A stretch of 63,848 nucleotides of DNA, filler included, from Neolecta irregularis DAH-3 (Eukaryota), in assembly GCA_001929475.1 (NCBI GenBank). It is 9 parts of 9 records of this genome, joined end to end, with 100 filler letters (N's around TTAATTAATTAA, not from the genome) between each part and the next. Parts side by side here need not be neighbours in the genome. Positions count along the whole stretch, not along the records: positions 36,885 to 59,595 come from LXFE01000434.1; 8 more parts are not named here. One strand, written 5' to 3'. Positions 5,841-61,537 of this stretch are shown here, piece by piece. The notes under the pieces were generated by a model. The model searched no databases, had not been told where the DNA came from, and saw only the letters and a list, made by a program, of their open reading frames with translations. The position numbers and the translations under genes are program-made. The stretch's first letter is position 1, and each line of letters starts with the position of its first letter.

Positions 5841-5940
5841 NNNNNNNNNNNNNNNNNNNNNNNNNNNNNNNNNNNNNNNNNNNNTTAATTAATTAANNNN
5901 NNNNNNNNNNNNNNNNNNNNNNNNNNNNNNNNNNNNNNNN
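5841..5940. other. Artificial contig linker N44-TTAATTAATTAA-N44 (also at about 10017, 12583, 17414, 21535, 36785, 59596 and 61438)
   Basis: The same 12-mer, which gives stops in all six frames, sits inside N runs eight times. Confidence 0.97.
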
Positions 5941-6119: not shown

Positions 6120-6129
6120 NNNNNNNNNN

Positions 6130-10016: not shown

Positions 10017-10115
10017 NNNNNNNNNNNNNNNNNNNNNNNNNNNNNNNNNNNNNNNNNNNNTTAATTAATTAANNNNNNNNNNNNNNNNNNNNNNNNNNNN
10101 NNNNNNNNNNNNNNN

Positions 10116-11420
10116 NGATGTCATGAGAATCATAGTCACCCCATCGAAGCTGGACATCGATCCAAAATTTATTAGTCGTAGTACCATCAATTTGATCGCG
10201 GGAATCATTCAAGGGCGAAGGCTTCGAGACATTCCATTTGTAAGTGTTCAAGAATGCCTTCTATACCACCAAGCGCTTGGAGCATGTCGGTCCTGTAGGA
10301 ATTAAGATTCAATAATCTTCCGTCATGCCGTTCGTTGGTCCACCAGAAAGGATTGTTCTTGAGTAACTGGTATTCTTTGAACTGAGTCCGCACTCGCCAC
10401 CCCTTATCCATCATAAGAGTATGCCGATATTTTTGGAAGAGTGTGCTAATACGAGGAATGCCTCAATCCCAGGAATCCTCGAGATCTTCGAGAGTTAGTC
10501 GACGGTTCTGTTGTGCTGCCTCTTGTCGTTTCATAGTGTATTCGGCCCGCACTCTTGGGAATCGATGAATTCAGCTTCCCATGACTGGATATATCGGTAT
10601 AAATTCGGAATCTGTTGGTCTTCATCGTGCGACTACCTGCTCGGAAAAGGGTGATCCCAGCATCAATTTGTTTCGAATATCGCATATCGGATTGAGGAAT
10701 AAGAACACGATCCATTGATATCATACCCACGTCTCCAAGTTCTTTAGGACAATAGAATACAGCTGGTGGGAAACGACTTGGCATCTACAAGGATGAGAAT
10801 TTGGCAGAGTAAGATATACCTTGGAAATCAAACCAATCTTGACTCTCGTTTGAACCTTAGTTCCGCATCGAACAAGAAGATCAAGCAACTCAGGAATTGT
10901 TATAACGGCCTCTCGATAATAAGTCAATATACTGATTAGTGCAGTGTTCCATTTGTTGACGATCTTCGTGAATGTCGTTGAACCAGAAGATATCAAGATT
11001 TGTCAGACGCGATTGTTAAATTTCATCTGGCCTTCTTCGCTTACCCTGAGGAAAGCAGAGGCAGTCGTTCCTTCCTTTCTTCATACGTGAGACTCCAAAC
11101 GCCATCTTTCTGACTGAATTCTTCTGTTTGCGCTCGCACTTTAGGTAGTATTCGGACCTCAAAACCACCGATATCGAGCAGAAGGCTCGGATTATCGCGA
11201 CTATAGACAGAGACGAATGTGGTTTCGTCCCATTCAGTTGTTGTAATGCTTCGAGGTAATCGAATCTTAATATCCTAAAACACAGCTTTCGCAAGATGAA
11301 CATCATGTTTCATCAATCACATTCGGTCATCCCGAGGCCATGCCTTTTTCTTCGTGGGTAAGCCGAAAATATCTTCGAAATTCGGGTCTGGATGTTCAGT
11401 TAGGTAGCATTGAATAGGTA
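10116..11420 (-). pseudogene. PRP8: Degenerate partial copy of spliceosomal PRP8
   Basis: Prp8 peptides are recognisable: [69 protein letters not shown]. They are broken by stops at 11317-19 and 11275-77, frameshifts and an internal deletion. Confidence 0.9.
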
Positions 11421-13039
11421 AACTTCATTTCTCTCAGAATCATTAGCAGATGATTTCTGTGCCAAAAGGACTTTATTTAGCTAGAAATTAGTTGAATGAA
11501 TGAAACCTTTGGGAAGCGGTATATGGGTGAGGCCGTGTACAACCAAAAGGGTACCGTAAAAGATGGGTCTTCCGTTGATTTTGCAGATGACATCCACTAC
11601 CCGACTTTAACTGTCGAACAGACTCTCGGTGGAAAAATGAGGGGCTGAAGTCGGCGTGACTGTGGTTGTAATTGCTGCTGGGCATACTAGGCTGGGCGGG
11701 GCCCGGTCAAAGGATGTCCGCGATGAGGGAGACCGAGTACGGCGGGAACAGCCAGGCAGTAGAGGAGAAGGTGATGCTGGTGGTCTCAACCGCAGTGTGT
11801 ATTTTGTTGCAGGGGTAGTCTGCAGCGGGGGTGCGATCATGGTCGAGGCAGTGCTGCGGGAGCGGGGTGTTGAAGGCGACGGCGTGGATCTGCGGGGCAG
11901 ATTTTCGAGTAGTGCAATATGGTCGAGGAGGGCGGAGTGGGCGGGGGGGCTGCCATACGAGGATGCTGCGGGCGGTGCTGAGGGGCAGGGAGAAGGTGTA
12001 GTCTGCAGACAAGCTGTAGTCTGCGGTGCAGAGGAGCGAGCAGGGCGCGGGATCCAGGAGAGCAGGGCGTCAGTAATTCCAGCCAGAGAGATGTGTGCAA
12101 GCCAGGGCAAGGAAGCCGTGGTTGTTGTAGCGGCGCGGGTACATCGAAGGAAAGGAAGGGCGCGAGCTCCTAGTCCGCAGGGTGCAGTCTGGGAGGTCGC
12201 CGGGAGTCTGAGCGGGGATCTGGAGGGACATAGAGGTCAGCGAGGGCGAGGAGGGCGCCGTGGAGAGAGGTGAGAGACGGCAGGAAATATCTGCGCGTAG
12301 AAAAACTGCCAACCCGAGAAGCCTGCTCCAACAATATACATTATTATATTAAACTACTGAACACTCTAAGCCCCGTCTCTATCCTCAGCCCTGCTAATTG
12401 TCACCTGCCGAACGACCAGATCAAAGACAGCCATTAAGTTTGTCATATCGATTCCGTAAATCTTTTCTTTGTGCTTCCTGCCCAACCATGTCGCGTATTG
12501 TTCTACCGCCCTGCCTCCATCAAATGTCTGCCCGGCCAACCTAAATATTTGCTCCCTCAATGACTTGTGTGTCAATGCTGCTNNNNNNNNNNNNNNNNNN
12601 NNNNNNNNNNNNNNNNNNNNNNNNNNTTAATTAATTAANNNNNNNNNNNNNNNNNNNNNNNNNNNNNNNNNNNNNNNNNNNNCACGAGTACGACCGGCGG
12701 ATAAGCCGCAACGGCAACCACCCGCCTCCGGCGCCGACCGGCGGGAGTGTTGGGTACGTCGAGGGCAACGGGCCCGCGTGGATGCACAAGGCTCGCTACC
12801 CGCGCCGCGCAGGCCCGCAGTTTGGGCGCGGGGCGGGGCGCAGCGCGGGGCCGTGGCTTGCGCGGGCAGGGCAGCGCGGGACGGACACGTATATTCCGCG
12901 CGAGCGCAGCAGAGAGCGCACCCGCAGCAGAGAGCGCGCATCCCGCCCAGGCAAAGACTCGTATGTTCCTGCGCGGGACGGGGCAGGCGGCAACCGCTCG
13001 CGCACGCCGGTGCTGGACTACTAGTGCTGGCGGTGTCCT

Positions 13040-17413: not shown

Positions 17414-17513
17414 NNNNNNNNNNNNNNNNNNNNNNNNNNNNNNNNNNNNNNNNNNNNTTAATTAATTAANNNNNNNNNNNNNNNNNNNNNNNNNNNNNNN
17501 NNNNNNNNNNNNN

Positions 17514-20668: not shown

Positions 20669-21634
20669 TGCCATGTTGATTAGTTCTTGCATGATCCTGT
20701 TTGTAGATTGATCTAAAAAATATATATTTCCAAGCATGATACAAATATGATACGATTCGCCTGGTTATTGGATTCATATACCACAAATTGATACTTAGGA
20801 ACTAGAACCTTCGATTACCAGATGGTACGACACATTTTCTCAATATCACCATTCTCAGCGCATTAATTGCTCACTACCATAATTCCCTGCGACATATACC
20901 CTCATTCATCCAAGCACGCTGTCGCCTAATTCAATCCTTTGCATCCCCCCCCTTTTCCTCTCTCCCTCATGGCCGCTAAGACAAACACTCTGTCCCCCTT
21001 TTTTCCCCAACGCCATACTCTCGAACCCATCTCGCAACTAACTACAATACTTTCTCTCCTCCCCTGCAACAACCCTAATTTGGAAACCCTTTCTACTAGC
21101 AAACTGGCAGAGTCGCCTAATCCCCAACTATGAGTCTCGTTGGCGGTATGGTAAGCACTAACCACCCAACGGTCATTTCTCTTTCTTTCTCTACTTTTTC
21201 CACACTAATATTTTCCTTCTCTCGCTGTCTTTCTTAAACTACTTTTCTCGCTCCTCTGCTGGATAGGAGAACAGTGGGGCTATAAATATGGGCCTGGAGC
21301 CAGTCTTTTCGGATAGTCTCAATATACCGTCTTACGCGGCTCCCTCGTCCGCGCCGTTCACTAATAGTTTAGTAGTGATCACATAAGAGCATTACTTAAA
21401 TCTTTGGCTATTCTACAAGATCAATCCAGTAATCAGATCCAGTGGCATGAGCCGTGCTCTGATCCAATGGGAACTGGTGATTATTCTGTCGTCTCCAGTC
21501 ATCTCGAACAAGTCGGTCCTCTTTTTGCACATTANNNNNNNNNNNNNNNNNNNNNNNNNNNNNNNNNNNNNNNNNNNNTTAATTAATTAANNNNNNNNNN
21601 NNNNNNNNNNNNNNNNNNNNNNNNNNNNNNNNNN

Positions 21635-36582: not shown

Positions 36583-36884
36583 CAGACGATAGGCGGACTC
36601 AGCGGGGCGGCCAGAGGGTGGTGGAGCACCCGGCAACACCCGCGCCGCCCGGCAGTCTCCGAGCGCTTCCCCCCTCCTCTCCAGCGATGGCCAGTGCGCC
36701 GGATGGCCTGTTTGCCCGCAGCAGCGCCGCCGAGCCGCACAGCCCTGTCTGCAGCACCAGCAACAGCCCCGCGCAGCCGCAGCCNNNNNNNNNNNNNNNN
36801 NNNNNNNNNNNNNNNNNNNNNNNNNNNNTTAATTAATTAANNNNNNNNNNNNNNNNNNNNNNNNNNNNNNNNNNNNNNNNNNNN

Positions 36885-44153: not shown

Positions 44154-45358
44154 ATGATCACTGCCCGTTATGTATCGGTACTGTGCAAACCCAAAACTGC
44201 TTCGCGCTTTGCAGCAACTCTAGCCTTTCTCGAACATCAGCACTCTTTATTCAATCCCGCGAGTCTCTCTGCTCTCACCGCCGCCTGCTCTCTAAAACAT
44301 CCCGTCACCGTCCTGGTCACTGGTTCGCAAGCAGGAAACATTGCAAAACAAGCTGTAAACCTGGAAGGGGTTGCAAAGATTCTCTGTGTAGAAGACAGCC
44401 AGTACGATAAAGGCCTGCCGGAGAATCTTGCCAATCTCCTCGTACAAGTCATTAAAACAGGCAATTTCTCGCATGTCTTCTCTGCACACAGTGCTACAGG
44501 TAAAAATGTTATGCCTCGCGTCTCCGCTCTCCTCGATGTGCAGCAATTGAGCGATATAACGGCGATCCTGGATGACAATACCTTCACCCGCCCAATTTAC
44601 GCAGGTTCGTCTTCTCTACTCAGACTACTCTACTCAAACTCGTAGGAAACGCAATCTTGACTACACAGAGCCAGGACCCTATTAAAGTAATCACTGTAAG
44701 AGCAACTTCGTTCACTGCAGCAAAACCGGGAGATTCACAAGCATCTGTTGAACACATCCAGAGCCCTCAATCATCACAACAGTCAGAATGGATTAGCGAA
44801 AATCTGGCTTTTACTGAAAGACCAGATCTGGGAAGTGCTTCGAGAGTTGTCAGTGGTGGTCGAGCAGTCAAGACTAAGGACAATTTTGACAAGGTGATCG
44901 TACCACTCGCTGATGCTCTTGGTGCCGCTATTGGTGCAAGTCGCGCTGCTGTTGATGCGGGCTACGCGGACAATTCCTTACAAGTCGGACAAACGGGCAA
45001 GATAGTGGGTTCTTCACCTTGAAAATTGTTGTCTCTGATCTGAAGCACCGGAACTTTATATTGCCGTAGGCATCAGTGGAGCGATTCAGGTATTTTCTCG
45101 GAAACTGAGCAAATGCTCACTGATAGCATCTGGCAGGCATGAAGGATAGCAAGACAATCGTGGCAATTAATAAAGGTATGTTGAATCTATAGACTAGTTC
45201 TCTGAAATGTAGATGCTGATGCGCCCATATTCCAGATAAGTCTTCCTATTCCCTATATACACGTAGCATGTACTGACCTGGAGTACGTTGCTGATTTTGG
45301 GCTTGTGGCAGATTTATTTGAAGCGGTTCCTGAGCTGACAGAGAAACTCAAATCATAA
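44154..45358 (+). CDS. ETFA: Electron transfer flavoprotein alpha subunit, 5 introns
   Basis: [74 protein letters not shown]. Confidence 0.96.
45236..45286 (+). other. Candidate AT-AC intron (51 nt) with U2-type signals
   Basis: CAG|ATAAGT...TACTGAC CTGGAGTAC|GTT. Removing it restores the conserved [11 protein letters not shown] exactly. Confidence 0.72.
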
Positions 45359-45477
45359 ATGCAAATATTGATTAATAACACTTGAAACGCGAATTTAGTA
45401 AAATCCAACCACCATACATTCCTTCCCGACATTTTCTTCATTCATTCGCTCAATCGTATCGTATATATTTATATGCC

Positions 45478-48425
45478 ATGCTCTCCGAGGTCTTGGAAAC
45501 CAATGTTGCTACCAAGCCCTTGGAGTCTGCAGAAAATCGCGTGCCTTTGGAAATACCATTAATCAGAGCTACTTCCGCCCAAACCCACAATCATAAATAC
45601 CCGATCAATAACATGATTAAAGAGGAGCAAAAAGTAGAGGAAGAGCAGGAAAATGCGCAAGAAGAGCCAGCAAAAACGGCCCCGGTTTACTCTACGATCG
45701 TAGCCGTAGCTTACTTTAGGCAGCAAACTCTTTTTATGTAAACGAGGGAACAAAAAGAGTACTCTTTATTATCGAGCGCTCCAAGGTTTATAGCAATTTT
45801 GTCGCAGAACAAATGCTTCGTCTCTCCAATCGAACCCACATGACAGAGGAAGCAATTGAACAGAAACAAAAACGCAAAGAAGAGCGGGAGGCGAAGAAAA
45901 CTACTACCTCCTCTAGGAAAAGCACTCGAAATTCCGCTAGCGCTACTCAATCGAAATCTAACGGAAGTACCAGCAATAGCAAAAGGTCCGCTGCAGGAAG
46001 AAATATCAAGAAAAATGTGACTCTACTCTCACAAGAAGTTGATCTCGACGTTGTTTCCCCAGTTGATTGTTGTTTTAATGTTTTTAGGTAATTAAAAAGG
46101 CTCAAGTTGCCCAGACTGCAAAAGAGGCACTCGAGATTGGGGCCAAAGAAGAAAAGGATTCTAATATGGAAGGAATGACCAAGCCTACAAAAGGAACCCG
46201 TCAGCCGGAACTCGTCACTGGTGGTACCATGAAAGACTATCAGCTTGCTGGTCTTGAGTGGTTGATTTCACTATACGAAAACGGATTGAACGGCATCCTT
46301 GCAGACGAAATGGGTCTCGGCAAAACTTTGCAGACTATATCTTTTTTCGCATTCCTTCGCAGTAAACAGATCTATGGACCTTTCTTGGTTGTCGCTCCTC
46401 TATCGACACTTTCTAACTGGATCAATGAGTTTGAAAGATTTACCCCAGATATTCCGGTGTTGATGTATTATGGACCACCCCCAGAACGTCAGCAATTACG
46501 TACCGAATATCTGACTCGAACTGGTTCCGATTTTCCAGTAGTAGTCACTTCATACGAAATGATTATGCGAGATCGTCCCATGTTGAATAAATTGAAGTGG
46601 AAATATATAGTCATTGACGAGGGTCATCGGATCAAGAACTTGGACTGCAAGTTAGTGCGTGAATTGTCAACTTATCAGTCCGCCAACAGGCTATTGCTCA
46701 CGGGAACACCTTTACAGGTATCGTTGATCTAGCTCACTATGCTAATTCTCAGAATAATTTAACTGAACTATGGAGTTTATTGCATTTCCTGCTACCCGAT
46801 ATATTTGCTCTTCAGGATCTTGATTATTTTCTGAGTTGGTATGTTTTTTGATAACTATTTCCTGATGTCAAGGTTTGATTTTTCTGCGCTCCACACTGAA
46901 GGTGGCATGGATCAGATTCTTGATCAAGAACATCAAAACAAGATTGTTTCAAATCTTCATCAGATTTTGAAACCTTTCTTGCTACGGCGACTCAAGTGTG
47001 ATGGTATTTTGCCTCTTTGCTTTGACTCATGACACATAGTCGAACTTTCACTGCCGAAAAAACGCGAGTATATAATATATGCACCTTTGACTCCCAAACA
47101 AGTAGAACTTTACGAGAGTACTATAAATCACCAAATACGAGAACTTCTCACAGCTCAAATGGATAGCCGAAATTCGCCTGCTCCATCCGCCGCTAGTAGC
47201 CGAAAACGTAAATTCGAGGATGATACATCGGATACCGATTCTCTCCCAAGCAGTAAACGGCCAAGAACGCAATTATGTTACAGAGAATTAAATGATGAAG
47301 AGTGGTTTACACAAATGGAAGCCCTTGTGAACAGTGCTCCTCGAGAAGCGGATACAGAGACATTAAATCCTGATACAAAAATCACGACAAGTATGTTGAC
47401 ATAGTCTTTTTATTTTCCAATATTTTAGAAAAGCGAATAGCCAGCCTGAGACTTCAAAATCTCCTTATGCAATTGCGCAAAGTATCAAATCATCCTTACC
47501 TCTTTGACTGGCCGACTGTTGGGGATACAGATCTACTACTCCTCGATGAAAAGCTTTTAGAATCATCAGGCAAAATGATTTTGTTGGACCGATTGTTGAC
47601 CGCTTTGCTTGAACGAGACCACAAAGTATTGATATTCAGTCAGTTTACTACGATGCTTAATATCATTGAACTTTGGGCTGAAGATCTCAAATTCTGGAAA
47701 GTTTGTCGTATTGACGGGGATATTAAGCAGGAAGATCGTCGTCAAGAGATCCAAAATTTCAATACAGATCCCTCTATCCGTATCTTTTTACTTTCAACCC
47801 GAGCTGGTGGTCTCGGGATTAACTTGGCTGCAGCAGATACTGTGATCATCTTTGACTCGGACTGGGTATCTATGTTCTTTGCATCTTTTAATCTATATAG
47901 AATCCACAACAAGATATACAGGCACAGGACCGTGCACACAGAATTGGGCAAACTAGGGTTAATCACTTGCATTTTTCACTGCATATTCGCTAAATCAATA
48001 GCCAGTCATTGTCTACAGATTCATATCCGCAAACACAGTCGAAAGCAAAATTCTCGCAAGGGCAACCGCAAAACGAAGATTGGAAAAACTAGTCATTCAA
48101 AAAGGAAAATTCCAATCATTCATTCCTGTCAAAAAGACCGAACAAGAATCATTTAATGAATTATCAGAATTGTTAAAACGAGACGATTCCGAGAAATTTA
48201 TTGTGGAGAATGTGAAGGATCAGATTTTAAGTGATGCCCAGATTGATATACTTTTAGACAGAAGGTACCCGGTATTGCTTGAAGAGAATCTGCTAAAAGA
48301 AATCTAGTGATGAAGCATATGAACAAGCACTGGCTGGTAAAGATGTTGTTGATAAGCGGTTTCAAGTGGTAAAGGAGCAAATCAATGATGATTCACTCGG
48401 TATCAAAACCGAAAAAGAGGAATAG
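45478..48425 (+). CDS. SNF2-family chromatin remodeller, HELLS/LSH/DDM1/Irc5 subfamily
   Basis: QPELVTGG.MKDYQLAGLEWLISLYENGLNGILADEMGLGKT, DEGHRIKN, LLSTRAGGLGINL, KRRLEKLVIQKG. No HAND-SANT-SLIDE or bromodomain tail. Confidence 0.88.
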
Positions 48426-51642: not shown

Positions 51643-52725
51643 AACGATCCGGGAGGACCGAGCTTTGGGCGAATACCCGCATAATCGGGGCGCAGGTGAT
51701 GACCTCTAATGCTGCGCATGTAACGCGAAATAGCAATTACGGCCTCCTGGATGCGGGAAGATTGGAGGGTATAGTCATCAGGATTATCGATCTACAGGTC
51801 AACGTAGCCCAAACAAATGCCGTGCCCATTCTGTATCCGGCCCAAAACGGATTTGCCCGGCAGTGTCGAGTGTCAGATGGATGCCCAGGCCCGCGAGATC
51901 TTTGTTTGGACATCTGGAGTCAGCACATACAACCAGGGGCGAACAACGGATATATAAGGTGCTTGGGCCTCGCAGGGCCCGAGTATGCGAAATAAGTGCC
52001 TTTGCAGTAGTGTGGCGTAAATTTCTCCAGACTGGTAAGATTTGCCAAGCGGCAGCTGTCGTGTCCGGCTGCATTGACTACACAGTCTGCAGATATTGAA
52101 ATGGATGGGAGGTCACCGCAGGATACATCGAGGATCCATCCGCTACCCACATCTGCCCGACGGATCCCTGTCACGGTAGAACCAAAGGCTATGTCAGCGC
52201 TGTGCGTTTGCACATCTGCAAGAAGTGCCGCAATAAGGGCGCTGGTATCGACAATTGCGGTATTGGGTGACAGCAGCACTGCTTCGCCGGCACAAATGTC
52301 TGGCTCTAGCATGAGAAGGCGCCCGCGGGTGAGGAACTGCGTGGGGACTGCGAGTGCACTCGCATGCGCATGGAGGTTATGCAAAAACGCAGCCTCTGGT
52401 TGTGACTGGGCAACAACTAGTTTTCCCACACGATGAAAAGGGATATCGCGGGTCTCACAAAATGTTTGAAGCAGCGCGGCCCCTCGGAGACAAAGACGAG
52501 TCTTGAGCGAGTCTGTACTCAGACTAGCTCGTAGACAAGAAACGTACTGGGCGGATGGTACAACCCAGCATGGACAATTCCCGAGTTGCGGGCCGAAGTT
52601 AGGGTGGCAGGTGCAGGTAGTCGTTCGAGGAGTAGCGTGGGCGTGCGTGCAGCCAGCGCGCGAGCAACGCTGATTCCGACTACGCCTGCCCCGATGACTG
52701 CAGCCCCAAAGTCTAGTTTGGGCAT
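51522..52725 (-). CDS. L-2-hydroxyglutarate dehydrogenase-like FAD oxidoreductase, 3 introns
   Basis: [57 protein letters not shown]. Confidence 0.92.
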
Positions 52726-52986
52726 GTGTGTGTGATGGAATTAATGGTAATGGTAGTGGTGGGCTAGGCGATGGTGGTTGGTTTAGGGGATAAGTAACAG
52801 GCGACGGTGGTTGGCAGACGGCGACAATCTAGAGGCAACCGATCATAGCTGGTGGTTAGGGTAACGGTGCTCGGTGATAGACAAGCCGGTGGTGGTTGGC
52901 TCAATGACAGGCCGCAGGGATGGCAGGAAGCGGTCGCGGGCCGCGTTGAGCCGACTGGATTTGCGAGCGGCGCTCCACTGCACTCC

Positions 52987-54084
52987 ATGTCTGGCGATCC
53001 CCGCCGCCGCAGCCTGCTCTCGATTGTCTCGTACAGGAGCGACTTTTCGGCGGAGTCAACATCGCCGAATGGTTCGCCAATGAACTCGTCTGTGGCCCTG
53101 TCGTCTGCTCCGCTGTCGCCCAGCCTGACTGCCTCCCCGACTGCGTCGTCGCCCACCATCATGTCTGCCCTCGACTCGGCCCTTGACTCGGCGCTCCTCG
53201 TTGCAGAACTGCCCGCCCTCGTCCCGCCCAAACGGCCCTCTTCGACCGGGTCGGGCATCTTTCGCAAGCACAAACCCGCGGCACCCGTCCTCTCCTGGTC
53301 CCCCAAACTCTACGTCCTCGTCCGCGGCACCCTCCTGCGTTTCAGCACAGACAAGCGGCACCAGCGCGTGCCCGAGAGCGTCTTTGTCTTCACGGCGGCC
53401 TCCATTGTGCGGGTCACCGATGCAATCCCGGGCTCACAGTGGGTCCTGCAGGTCTCGCCCACCGCCGCCCGCTCAGCCGCCGTCGCCTCGTACTTTGCAG
53501 ACTCCCCGACCGAGTTGCCCGCCGACTGCTGGTACCTGGTCATGCCTGATCCCGGCCGCATGACCGTGTGGATGCGCACCATGCGCGACCAGATTGCCGC
53601 AGCAAAGCGCGACCAGATCGCAGCCGCACGGAGCGAAGCCAGCAGTCCCACCCCCGCACTCGACGCCAATGCCCGGCCAGTGTCCACGGCATGCCTCTTT
53701 GGCACCGACGCTGGCAAAGACGCGTTCTGTCCCGCAGCCGCCTCCAAGCCCTACTTCAAAGACGCTCTCTCGTCACTCACCACCAGCCTGCTATCGCGAG
53801 ACTCCATCACCGAAGAGCCATCCCGCCCACAGACACCGCATTCATCCCAAGAGCCTTCGCCCAGAGAATCTTGTTCGTCAGACAGTTTCGCTCCAGCCAC
53901 GCTTGCTACTCGCCGCGACCAATGTTCAAAGCTCGCAAATCTCCACATCCTGCCGCCGTTGAAACCCCCACCGACTTCTCCCTTGCCTCCGCTGCCGGCG
54001 TCTCCAGCATATGTCTCCCGCAGGAGACGTCGCATAGTAAACGCCAGCGAATCCGACCAAACATCCTCCGAGGACCAAGACTAG
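52987..54084 (+). CDS. Ser/Pro-rich protein with a probable PH domain
   Basis: Intronless ORF with a PH-like core W..KLYVLVRGTLLRF...VTDAIPGSQWVLQV...MTVWMRTMR. Confidence 0.7.
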   Translation: MSGDPRRRSLLSIVSYRSDFSAESTSPNGSPMNSSVALSSAPLSPSLTASPTASSPTIMSALDSALDSALLVAELPALVPPKRPSSTGSGIFRKHKPAAPVLSWSPKLYVLVRGTLLRFSTDKRHQRVPESVFVFTAASIVRVTDAIPGSQWVLQVSPTAARSAAVASYFADSPTELPADCWYLVMPDPGRMTVWMRTMRDQIAAAKRDQIAAARSEASSPTPALDANARPVSTACLFGTDAGKDAFCPAAASKPYFKDALSSLTTSLLSRDSITEEPSRPQTPHSSQEPSPRESCSSDSFAPATLATRRDQCSKLANLHILPPLKPPPTSPLPPLPASPAYVSRRRRRIVNASESDQTSSEDQD

Positions 54085-55148: not shown

Positions 55149-57135
55149 TCACAACCCATAAAGATGATCTAGCTCTGTTTGTAACCTCTCTGCTTCCTGC
55201 TGCAATTCTGTTAGACTATCTTTTAAAATGGACGCTTCATCGTATTTCCGGCGGGCGTTCGCCTCATGTAACATCTCCTGGACGAGAAATATCTGTTCTT
55301 CGAGCACCATTAAAGCCTCCCTCCTAGCCGTTTCCTCTTTCTCAGATATACCTGTACTAAACGGGATTTGAGGGGACTGTGTACTTGTCGACGTTGGCGT
55401 TGAAATGCCCTGCACTCTGAGAGTTTTAGGAAGCATCTGCAGCGGTAACATATGCTGTTGAAGAAACGCGGTGGCTCTTTGATGAATTGCATCTTGAATT
55501 CGGTGTTCTGCTATTCCTTGTGTTTGCAACTGTTTTATCCGTTTGGCGCAGGCATCATAATTTCCAAAAGCATCCAACAATTTCTTTCTAATTCTAGAAG
55601 CTTGACTAATTTCTAGTTCCGACGGGGAATTTTCTGTATCTCTAGATAAATTAAAAGGTCTCTATGGAAATGCACGGTACTGTAGAAGAGCAACCATTTG
55701 ATGGAATTTTGGCAGGAGTAACTCTATCCCCGTTTTGAAATCATTCAGGTTCTTTGAAAATCAGCGATGAGAAACATACTAATCGTGACCTTGTAAAGAC
55801 GAAAAAGTCTAGAAAGATCTCCATCTTCATGAGCCAAACCAGATCTCCCAAAAGTGAGTCCGTGGCATCCTCGACATATTCGAATATCAATAACATCATT
55901 ATTCTCGCTTGCTGTGTCTCCGAGAACTTGGGACTTGGTAAACAGTAATAATCGAGACATACCATCAGCCACGTCGATGCCTATTTCCGCTGAACATCTG
56001 GAGCTAGAATCGGCACATACTACTCTCCCACAAAGTCGGCAGTGATGTTTTCTTAATATAAAACTAAACATCTGACTAGAAAATTAGACACTGCGTAGGT
56101 AGATTATCATAACTTGCAGAAGGGACAATGCAGCACAGAAGGATTTTCCTGCCATGCCACTACAGACTGTTCCAGCATTTTTCTCTGACTTTTCATAGAT
56201 GCAATGCTTCGAAATACTCCTGATGGCAGCTCTATAGTAGGAGGCTGAATTAAAAGTCGAACAAGCTGAGATTAGATGCCAATAAATTCCAACAAATAAC
56301 CTTTTGCAACCGTTTTGCATGACGATTTGCTTCCATCGACTGTTTCTCCACTCCTACTTGACGAATACATTTAAAAGCCTCAGTATGATCTCGACTAGAC
56401 CCTGGAGAATTAACAAATATTAGATTTCGATGTATACCACTATTATCTAAATAACCTTGTCTCGATTTAAAACATCCTTCACATACTCGAGCCCACACAC
56501 CACGAACTGGTTCATGACTCGCAGATCGAGATAATTTGATTTGAAAAAATGTATGCACATTACAATACAACCTTCCACATTTCCGACAATTAATTTTACC
56601 TGTTCTTGAATTCAGGAAATCTTTACACATGGGATCAGAACAATAGTCGCAAGCGGACTCGGGTTGCCAATGCGCTCTTGTAATCATATCATCTGAATCT
56701 CGACTAGTTTCAAGTAAACTCGATTCAAAGGATATTTCTCCATTGCGTTCAAATGGTTCTGGTAAGCCGAGTTTTTGGTGAATTGCAGCGACAGGAGCTA
56801 AATTGCGAGCTTTCGATACTCGCTGTTTTAACCATGCTTTTATTCCAACTTGGTGCACGATATCGGCGTACTCTGAATGAACGTCATCGAGGTGTTGATT
56901 AAGCTGAGAGAACGCAATCTGAGAATTAGCCTAGCGGATCCGGAAAATAGACCATCGTCTCGGAACATATAGGACAAACTAGATTTGGTTCTATATCTTC
57001 GGTAGCCGATAGCCTGACCGGTTGTAATGGTGTTTTCCGGCCAATGACTCGGGTTTGCATTATATACCGTATTAATATCTTCACAACTCCTATCGATTGT
57101 GGAGGTGAGGTTTCTGCCCCCGCGCCCCTCAACAT
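55149..57135 (-). CDS. PEP7: Pep7/Vac1 (rabenosyn-5) double-FYVE protein
   Basis: C2H2 CPIC...QLNQHLDDVH, NCRKCG, RKHHCRLCG and a C-terminal Rab-binding coil (LEEQIFLVQEM..A...RKYDE). Confidence 0.92.
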
Positions 57136-59595: not shown

Positions 59596-59711
59596 NNNNN
59601 NNNNNNNNNNNNNNNNNNNNNNNNNNNNNNNNNNNNNNNTTAATTAATTAANNNNNNNNNNNNNNNNNNNNNNNNNNNNNNNNNNNNNNNNNNNNAAATA
59701 CTGACCAACAA

Positions 59712-61115: not shown

Positions 61116-61537
61116 ATGACTAATGGTTCATTCGATTATTATCACTGGTTGTAAAATGTTTTATTAAAATGTATAGTAGACGTAACGGAAAAGTTTGTGG
61201 GATAGATATTAAATTTAAAATGACCTTCCGTCGCATGCTCTTTTGCTTCTCACATTGAACTGGGTTGTAAACAGACTTGCTTGCTTGGACTTGCTATTTT
61301 CTTGCAATTCTGGACTTGCTTGTCTGGACTTGATCAATATATCACGTGATCCGTGACAAATCTTGCTTGTATAACTTTGAGCAAATTGCAAATCAATTCA
61401 CAGTTGAACAACAAACCAACGTATTCAAACGAAACAANNNNNNNNNNNNNNNNNNNNNNNNNNNNNNNNNNNNNNNNNNNNTTAATTAATTAANNNNNNN
61501 NNNNNNNNNNNNNNNNNNNNNNNNNNNNNNNNNNNNN

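Follow-up and report, generated by a model that had tools for sequence, protein, structure and literature searches.

A candidate 51-nt U2-type AT-AC intron splitting the conserved C-terminal motif of the ETF-alpha gene in the ascomycete Neolecta irregularis DAH-3

In an engineered yeast intron studied by Parker and Siliciano in 1993, changing the first G to A reportedly blocks the second step of splicing, and changing the last G to C restores it. The ETF-alpha gene of Neolecta irregularis DAH-3 contains a 51-nt candidate intron with the same terminal pair, otherwise of consensus U2 type and likewise in a fungus without the minor spliceosome. Unlike the laboratory construct, the Neolecta case would be natural, presumably constitutive and located in a conserved metabolic gene. 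In animals, 24 U2-type AT-AC introns are recorded in SpliceRack, where their /ATAAGT consensus is strong, and two human sodium-channel AT-AC introns were shown to be spliced by the major spliceosome, according to the accessible part of PMC1557818; /ATAAGT is also given as the donor consensus of the U2-type AT-AC class in excerpts of PMC5029451 and PMC1557818. The Neolecta candidate resembles these animal U2-type (type II) introns, such as those of human SCN4A and SCN5A as described in the same excerpts (PMC1557818, PMC5029451), in its AT and AC ends, in its /ATAAGT donor and in having neither the donor nor the branch site of U12-type introns, from which dependence on the major spliceosome is presumed. 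Unlike them, it belongs to an ascomycete whose introns are ultra-short (34-44 nt) and whose splicing signals are degenerate; the use of U2-type snRNAs, which is presumed for the Neolecta candidate, was shown experimentally for the animal introns.

Three further comparisons can be made. An AT-AC intron nested in the RPL30 intron of S. cerevisiae is also endogenous to an ascomycete without U12 machinery, but, as far as the available text of PMC5029451 describes it, this event involves about 1-2% of transcripts and a donor unlike /ATAAGT, whereas the Neolecta donor is an exact match. In addition, and again unlike RPL30, the conserved protein is obtained from the Neolecta gene only by removal of the 51 nt. 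'Other AT-AC' introns of non-U12 kind, supported by ESTs and described in the accessible part of PMC2846911 from species without the minor spliceosome, are similar to the candidate in that U12 splicing is excluded, and the same applies to the AT-AC II introns hypothesised for fungal xylanase genes in the accessible part of PMC1557818, for which either the signals or the lineage exclude U12 splicing; both groups belong to different genes and lineages and are compared here by description, not by sequence. The U2-type AT-AC class is already known, and the Neolecta candidate would add one example to it without opening a new class. Our literature search found no paper on an AT-AC intron in Neolecta, and its yield on fungal U2-type AT-AC introns consisted of surveys and hypotheses with no Neolecta case among them. 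In the paper on the Neolecta genome, introns and RNA go unmentioned in the main text, and the methods, which may bear on the making of the gene model, are placed in supplements.

The window, which is the whole stretch of 63,848 nt of DNA analysed here, is composed of separate contigs joined by eight 100-nt artificial linkers (44 N, TTAATTAATTAA, 44 N) at 5841-5940, 10017-10116, 12583-12682, 17414-17513, 21535-21634, 36785-36884, 59596-59695 and 61438-61537, with a further 10-N gap at 6120-6129. Genes flanking a linker are not established as neighbours. The ETF-alpha gene occupies 44154-45358 on the + strand of the contig piece 36885-59595 (22,711 nt) and comprises six exons (Table 1). Its exon 2 product is 100% identical, over the 120 aa queried, to the deposited ETF-alpha of N. 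irregularis DAH-3 (P0001), which identifies the host of the locus as this early-diverging ascomycete. The predicted protein matches Pfam PF01012 (ETF domain, E 3.5e-44) and, after it, PF00766 (FAD-binding domain, E 2.3e-33), and human ETF-alpha (1T9G) aligns with it in HMMER at E 1.7e-89. With PF01012, then PF00766 and then the conserved C-terminal tail, the gene is an ETF-alpha gene. The residues near the split motif presumably bind FAD, which plays no part in the argument here. P0001 shares the 22,711-nt contig with the window piece; since both represent one assembly, neither confirms the bases of the other, and P0001 is no independent confirmation of the two terminal bases of the candidate.

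Table 1 Features of the ETF-alpha gene and of the candidate AT-AC intron, with positions counted along the window.
Feature	Position	Strand	Basis or remark
Exon 1, ATG at 44154	44154..44604	+	Translation equals P0001 N-terminus; Pfam PF01012 match
Intron 1, GT-AG, 41 nt	44605..44645	+	Exact P0001-to-DNA mapping; removal restores PIYAGNAI
Exon 2	44646..45008	+	100% identical to P0001 over 120 aa queried
Intron 2, GT-AG, 37 nt	45009..45045	+	P0001 mapping
Exon 3	45046..45089	+	P0001 mapping
Intron 3, GT-AG, 37 nt	45090..45126	+	P0001 mapping
Exon 4	45127..45175	+	P0001 mapping
Intron 4, GT-AG, 37 nt, phase 1 at INK/D	45176..45212	+	P0001 mapping
Exon 5, 23 nt, ends DADAPIFQ	45213..45235	+	Translation; excision test
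Candidate U2-type AT-AC intron, 51 nt, phase 0	45236..45286	+	Signals; homology gap; excision test
Candidate 5' splice site CAG/ATAAGT	45236..45241	+	Matches CAG/GTAAGT at 8/8 positions outside +1
Candidate branch-site motif TACTGAC	45271..45277	+	Presumed branch A at 45276, 10 nt before 3' end
Candidate 3' terminal AC (TAC/G)	45285..45286	+	First AC 3' of the branch motif itself
Exon 6, stop TAA at 45356-45358	45287..45358	+	Translation; excision test; human alignment

The conserved ETF-alpha motif PIFQ/VADFG is split by 45236-45286, whose first bases are ATAAGT (45236-45241) and whose last bases are TAC (45284-45286). The stretch is a multiple of three in length (3n) and has no in-frame stop, so that its translation would add 17 residues after DADAPIFQ. 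A first-pass annotation made from the sequence had described it as 51 nt starting with ATAAGT, ending with TAC and holding TACTGAC 10 nt from its end, and every one of these statements proved correct on re-reading. The donor CAG/ATAAGT contains the U2-type donor /ATAAGT in full.

U12-type introns are characterized by the donor RTATCCTT and the branch site TCCTTAAC. These consensus motifs are partly given in the accessible text of PMC2846911. Both are absent from the candidate, as the first-pass annotation had stated: its donor is ATAAGTCT, not RTATCCTT, departing from the latter at four of the last five positions, and its branch motif is TACTGAC. The closest likeness to TCCTTAAC is TCCTATTC at 45243-45250, which agrees at 5/8 positions and lies over 35 nt away from the 3' end. 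Correspondingly, the candidate has neither the donor /ATATCCTT nor the TCCTTAAC branch site 10-20 nt from the 3' end that mark a U12-type AT-AC intron. For Ascomycota and Basidiomycota, the available portions of PMC10639083 and also of PMC2846911 report no convincing minor introns and the loss of most or all minor snRNAs.

We compared the candidate with 20 GT-AG introns obtained by exact mapping of three deposited N. irregularis proteins onto the same contig, namely P0001 (ETF-alpha), P0121 (a Pep7/Vac1 homologue) and P0152 (a HELLS-like helicase). These introns represent computational annotation made without RNA; RNA of N. irregularis was first extracted in 2026, and poly-A RNA-seq data are deposited as GEO GSE300630 (PMC13263728). 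The annotated introns vary little in length and are very short (median 36.5 nt, sd 2.7, range 34-44 nt), and the candidate, at 51 nt, exceeds all 20 of them and is a length outlier relative to this small sample. Outside position +1, it matches CAG/GTAAGT at 8/8 positions, compared with 1-6 of 8 for the annotated introns, and it matches TACTRAC at 7/7 positions, compared with 4-5 of 7. The annotated donors are very degenerate, with G at +5 in 5/20 and GTAAGT in none of the 20. The distance from branch site to 3' end, 10 nt in the candidate, is near the usual 6-9 nt. The expectation of the first-pass annotation that the internal signals would be stronger than those of neighbouring introns was borne out, the donor and branch site being the best among the 21 introns. 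Such strong signals fit the compensation known in other non-canonical U2-type introns. The genes containing the 20 annotated introns lie at 44154-45358 (+), 45477-48425 (+) and 55642-56952 (-), and in most of these introns a YTRAY motif precedes the 3' end by 6-9 nt. The recognition of donors this weak in Neolecta merits attention of its own.

The deposited protein P0001 (350 aa) carries 17 extra residues between PIFQ and VADFG, and in this it translates the 51 nt as the 17-aa insertion that the first-pass annotation had anticipated of annotation pipelines. Among 120 fungal proteins examined, 109 were matched by the motif expression, and 108 of these have no insert, P0001 alone having the 17 extra residues. 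P0074 and P0106, two full-length proteins among the 11 unmatched ones, have a contiguous motif with variant residues, and the remaining unmatched proteins are truncated or run into introns at other points. Similarly, the insert is absent from all motif-matched metagenome loci (75/75), which belong to a set of 80 intron-free and mostly ~50% identical loci, five of which gave no match. In the HMMER alignment with human ETF-alpha (1T9G chain R), Q309 and V310 are the residues that directly border the 17-residue gap. The flanks of the insert, i.e. A306, P307, I308, F309 and Q310 before it and V328, A329 and D330 after it, vary little or not at all across a 44-sequence alignment. The Pfam PF00766 match ends 18 residues before the insert, which leaves the curated domain model uninterrupted. 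AlphaFold2 models based on the same 44-sequence alignment had pLDDT values below 50 over residues 264-350 of the insert-bearing P0001 and were equally poor over residues 247-325 of an insert-free control, P0003, so that they carry no weight for or against a tolerated insert.

No sign of an intron at the PIFQ position was found in the 120 fungal proteins, which is weak evidence because proteins seldom reveal introns; the read-through or truncation points in this set occur after INK, DAP, DPE and GLV(G), and never after PIFQ. Three partial fungal ETF-alpha proteins (P0004, P0047 and P0096) stop after INK with read-through-like residues. These protein sequences suggest that an intron at the position of Neolecta intron 4 is common to other fungi, and the short C-terminal region of ETF-alpha seems to hold introns at several differing positions across fungi.

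To find out which excision restores the protein, all excisions of at least 20 nt starting within 45222-45274 and ending by 45304 were scored against the orthologue tail. The excision AT(45236)-AC(45286) had the top score, 49, compared with 31 for retention, and was the only excision tried that restored the consensus. The dinucleotides AT at 45236-45237 and AC at 45285-45286 are indeed the sole borders that restore PIFQVADFG. No GT-AG or GC-AG pair among the excisions tried keeps the frame without adding residues.

The bare pattern ATAAGT..CTRAY..AC occurs in the window at chance level, with three matches compared with 1.66 expected, and three were reached in 23/100 shuffles; the two other matches sit in stretches with stops in all frames. 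The improbable part is the coincidence of the pattern with the homology gap. The chance of a match starting at one given base is ~1.3e-5 (1.66 over 2 x 63,848 start positions), and its end is required, in addition, to coincide with the other border of a gap that is independently defined by protein homology. The codon-usage log-odds of the 51 nt was -0.5, a value reached or undercut by 3.5% of 399 coding windows of the same length, and one of 15 ETF exon windows had a lower value than the candidate; this measure is weak, its intron background being a heuristic set of 17 introns. The heuristic set came from ORF bridging, which is noisy, and was replaced by the 20 annotated introns; at least one heuristic intron, 56919-56979, is wrong. 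An intron test based on ORF bridging was discarded, as its terminal-dinucleotide control ranked AT-AC 130th and placed GT-AG outside the top 12.

Judging by the anatomy of the stretch, the gap relative to homologues, the strength of the signals and the fact that only the AT-AC borders fit, we infer both that the 51 nt are spliced and by which spliceosome: 45236-45286 is likely a U2-type AT-AC spliceosomal intron, removed by the major (U2-dependent) spliceosome. The AT-AC interpretation of the first-pass annotation is supported on these sequence grounds.

The strongest competing explanation, which we consider unlikely, is that P0001 is right and the 51 nt are translated, either as a lineage-specific insertion of 17 residues or as a dead GT-AG intron that is read through after a change of its first G to A. 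It is in line with a stretch that is in frame and stop-free, that is located outside the PF00766 match and that is longer than every one of the 20 annotated introns. In principle, exonisation could occur, about one in ten fungal introns being 3n and stop-free according to the accessible part of PMC7072748. By the same token, the 3n length and lack of stops are unremarkable in an intron, because such introns make up ~9-11% of annotated fungal introns in that source. Against translation, the insert would split a motif that is contiguous in 108/109 fungal proteins and 75/75 metagenome loci and whose flanks are invariant, and its ends agree to the base with ATAAGT...TACTGAC...AC, for which the chance is ~1e-5 or less. 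For a dead intron, the change at the first base would suffice, and the change of the last base from G to C, which is the partner needed for function, would be a further coincidence; moreover, all 12 signal positions (TAAGT and TACTGAC) are still intact. The codon usage, within the lowest 3.5% of coding windows by the weak measure with a heuristic intron background, also speaks against translation.

Splicing from the same donor A at 45236 to AG at 45282-45283 would remove 48 nt in frame as an AT-AG intron and give the product PIFQYVADFG with one extra Tyr. This excision scored 45, compared with 49 for AT-AC, and its AG follows the branch A at 7 nt, which is also the distance between branch and 3' end seen most often among the annotated introns. 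However, a first-base A together with a last-base G reportedly blocks the second step, which a last-base C restores, GAG is a poor acceptor with which none of the 20 annotated introns ends, and the extra Tyr is present in no orthologue among the fungal proteins and metagenome loci examined. We therefore regard the AT-AG intron as very improbable.

Slightly less credible still is a canonical GT-AG intron, whether at 45240-45283, 45240-45266 or 45263-45283, or a GT-AG intron whose ends appear as AT and AC through assembly errors. The first of these has a typical length of 44 nt and a branch-to-AG distance of 7 nt, but the frameshift attributed to it by the first-pass annotation was indeed found: the product ends in FQIIRC followed by a stop, or else the TAA at 45237-45239 falls in the frame of the last exon. 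The 27-nt option at 45240-45266 had been said to leave an insertion, and eight extra residues do remain, whereas the 21-nt option at 45263-45283 leaves ten; both are below the annotated minimum of 34 nt, and the 27-nt option has no YTRAY branch motif. Assembly errors would have to be two independent miscalls situated exactly at both terminal bases. A U12-type AT-AC intron removed by the minor spliceosome is favoured by the terminal dinucleotides only and is hardly worth entertaining in view of the donor ATAAGTCT in place of RTATCCTT, the lack, close to the 3' end, of any branch site resembling TCCTTAAC, the reports, in the accessible parts of PMC10639083 and PMC2846911, that Ascomycota are without minor introns and most minor snRNAs, and the absence of any Rfam match in the window, snRNA families included, although 64 kb tell little on this point.

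If the 51 nt are a U2-type AT-AC intron, U1 and U6 would recognise CAG/AUAAGU, a perfect U2-type donor except for A at +1, and U2 would pair with UACUGAC so that A45276 could attack the donor. In the second step, the first base A would pair non-canonically with the last base C, replacing the pairing of G with G, and this pairing would set the 3' site at AC 45285-45286 rather than at AG 45282-45283. TTCCAG would thereby be joined to GTTGCT to encode a protein of 333 residues in which the universal motif PIFQVADFG is intact, and the predicted mRNA junction is ...CCCATATTCCAG joined to GTTGCTGATTTT....

The candidate probably arose from a GT-AG intron through a change of the first G to A and of the last G to C. 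Since the 51 nt are 3n and stop-free, an unspliced intermediate would leave the reading frame intact, which may have eased the passage from GT-AG to AT-AC. It is possible, although we advance it tentatively and with slightly more doubt than confidence, that Neolecta constitutively splices a natural AT-AC intron by its major spliceosome as the wild counterpart of the yeast first- and last-base suppressor pair, one that descended from a GT-AG ancestor by way of an intermediate that was frame-neutral, being 3n and stop-free, and tolerated poor splicing, and that is maintained by textbook donor and branch signals amid introns nearly lacking them.

The deposited ETF-alpha (350 aa) probably carries a false insert of 17 residues, the real protein probably having 333 aa, and the candidate intron would thus entail a correction of the public gene model for N. 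irregularis ETF-alpha. If true, it would also provide a clean natural example of the A-first and C-last combination, which so far rests on few animal introns and on engineered yeast constructs. Non-canonical introns that are 3n and stop-free slip past gene finders restricted to GT-AG, which affects counts of non-canonical introns in fungi, and, if the present case is true, further AT-AC introns may hide as in-frame 'insertions' in fungal proteomes predicted by such gene finders. Moreover, the candidate with its perfect U1 and U2 pairing and its 20 weak-donor neighbours of 34-44 nt offer a natural test of signal compensation. The case is relevant to splice-site recognition and to fungal annotation.

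Directly 3' of the ETF-alpha gene, 45477-48425 (+) is occupied by a gene with nine introns that encodes an SNF2-family helicase of 870 aa (P0152, deposited under the name 'Lymphoid-specific helicase'); among the matches listed, its closest relatives come mainly from Mucoromycota and Glomeromycota, with Pneumocystis next. Further along the same contig, which otherwise has 39-48% G+C, a 2-kb block at 52001-54000 has 60.6% G+C and contains long open frames on either strand, such as one of 411 aa at 52849-54084 (+).
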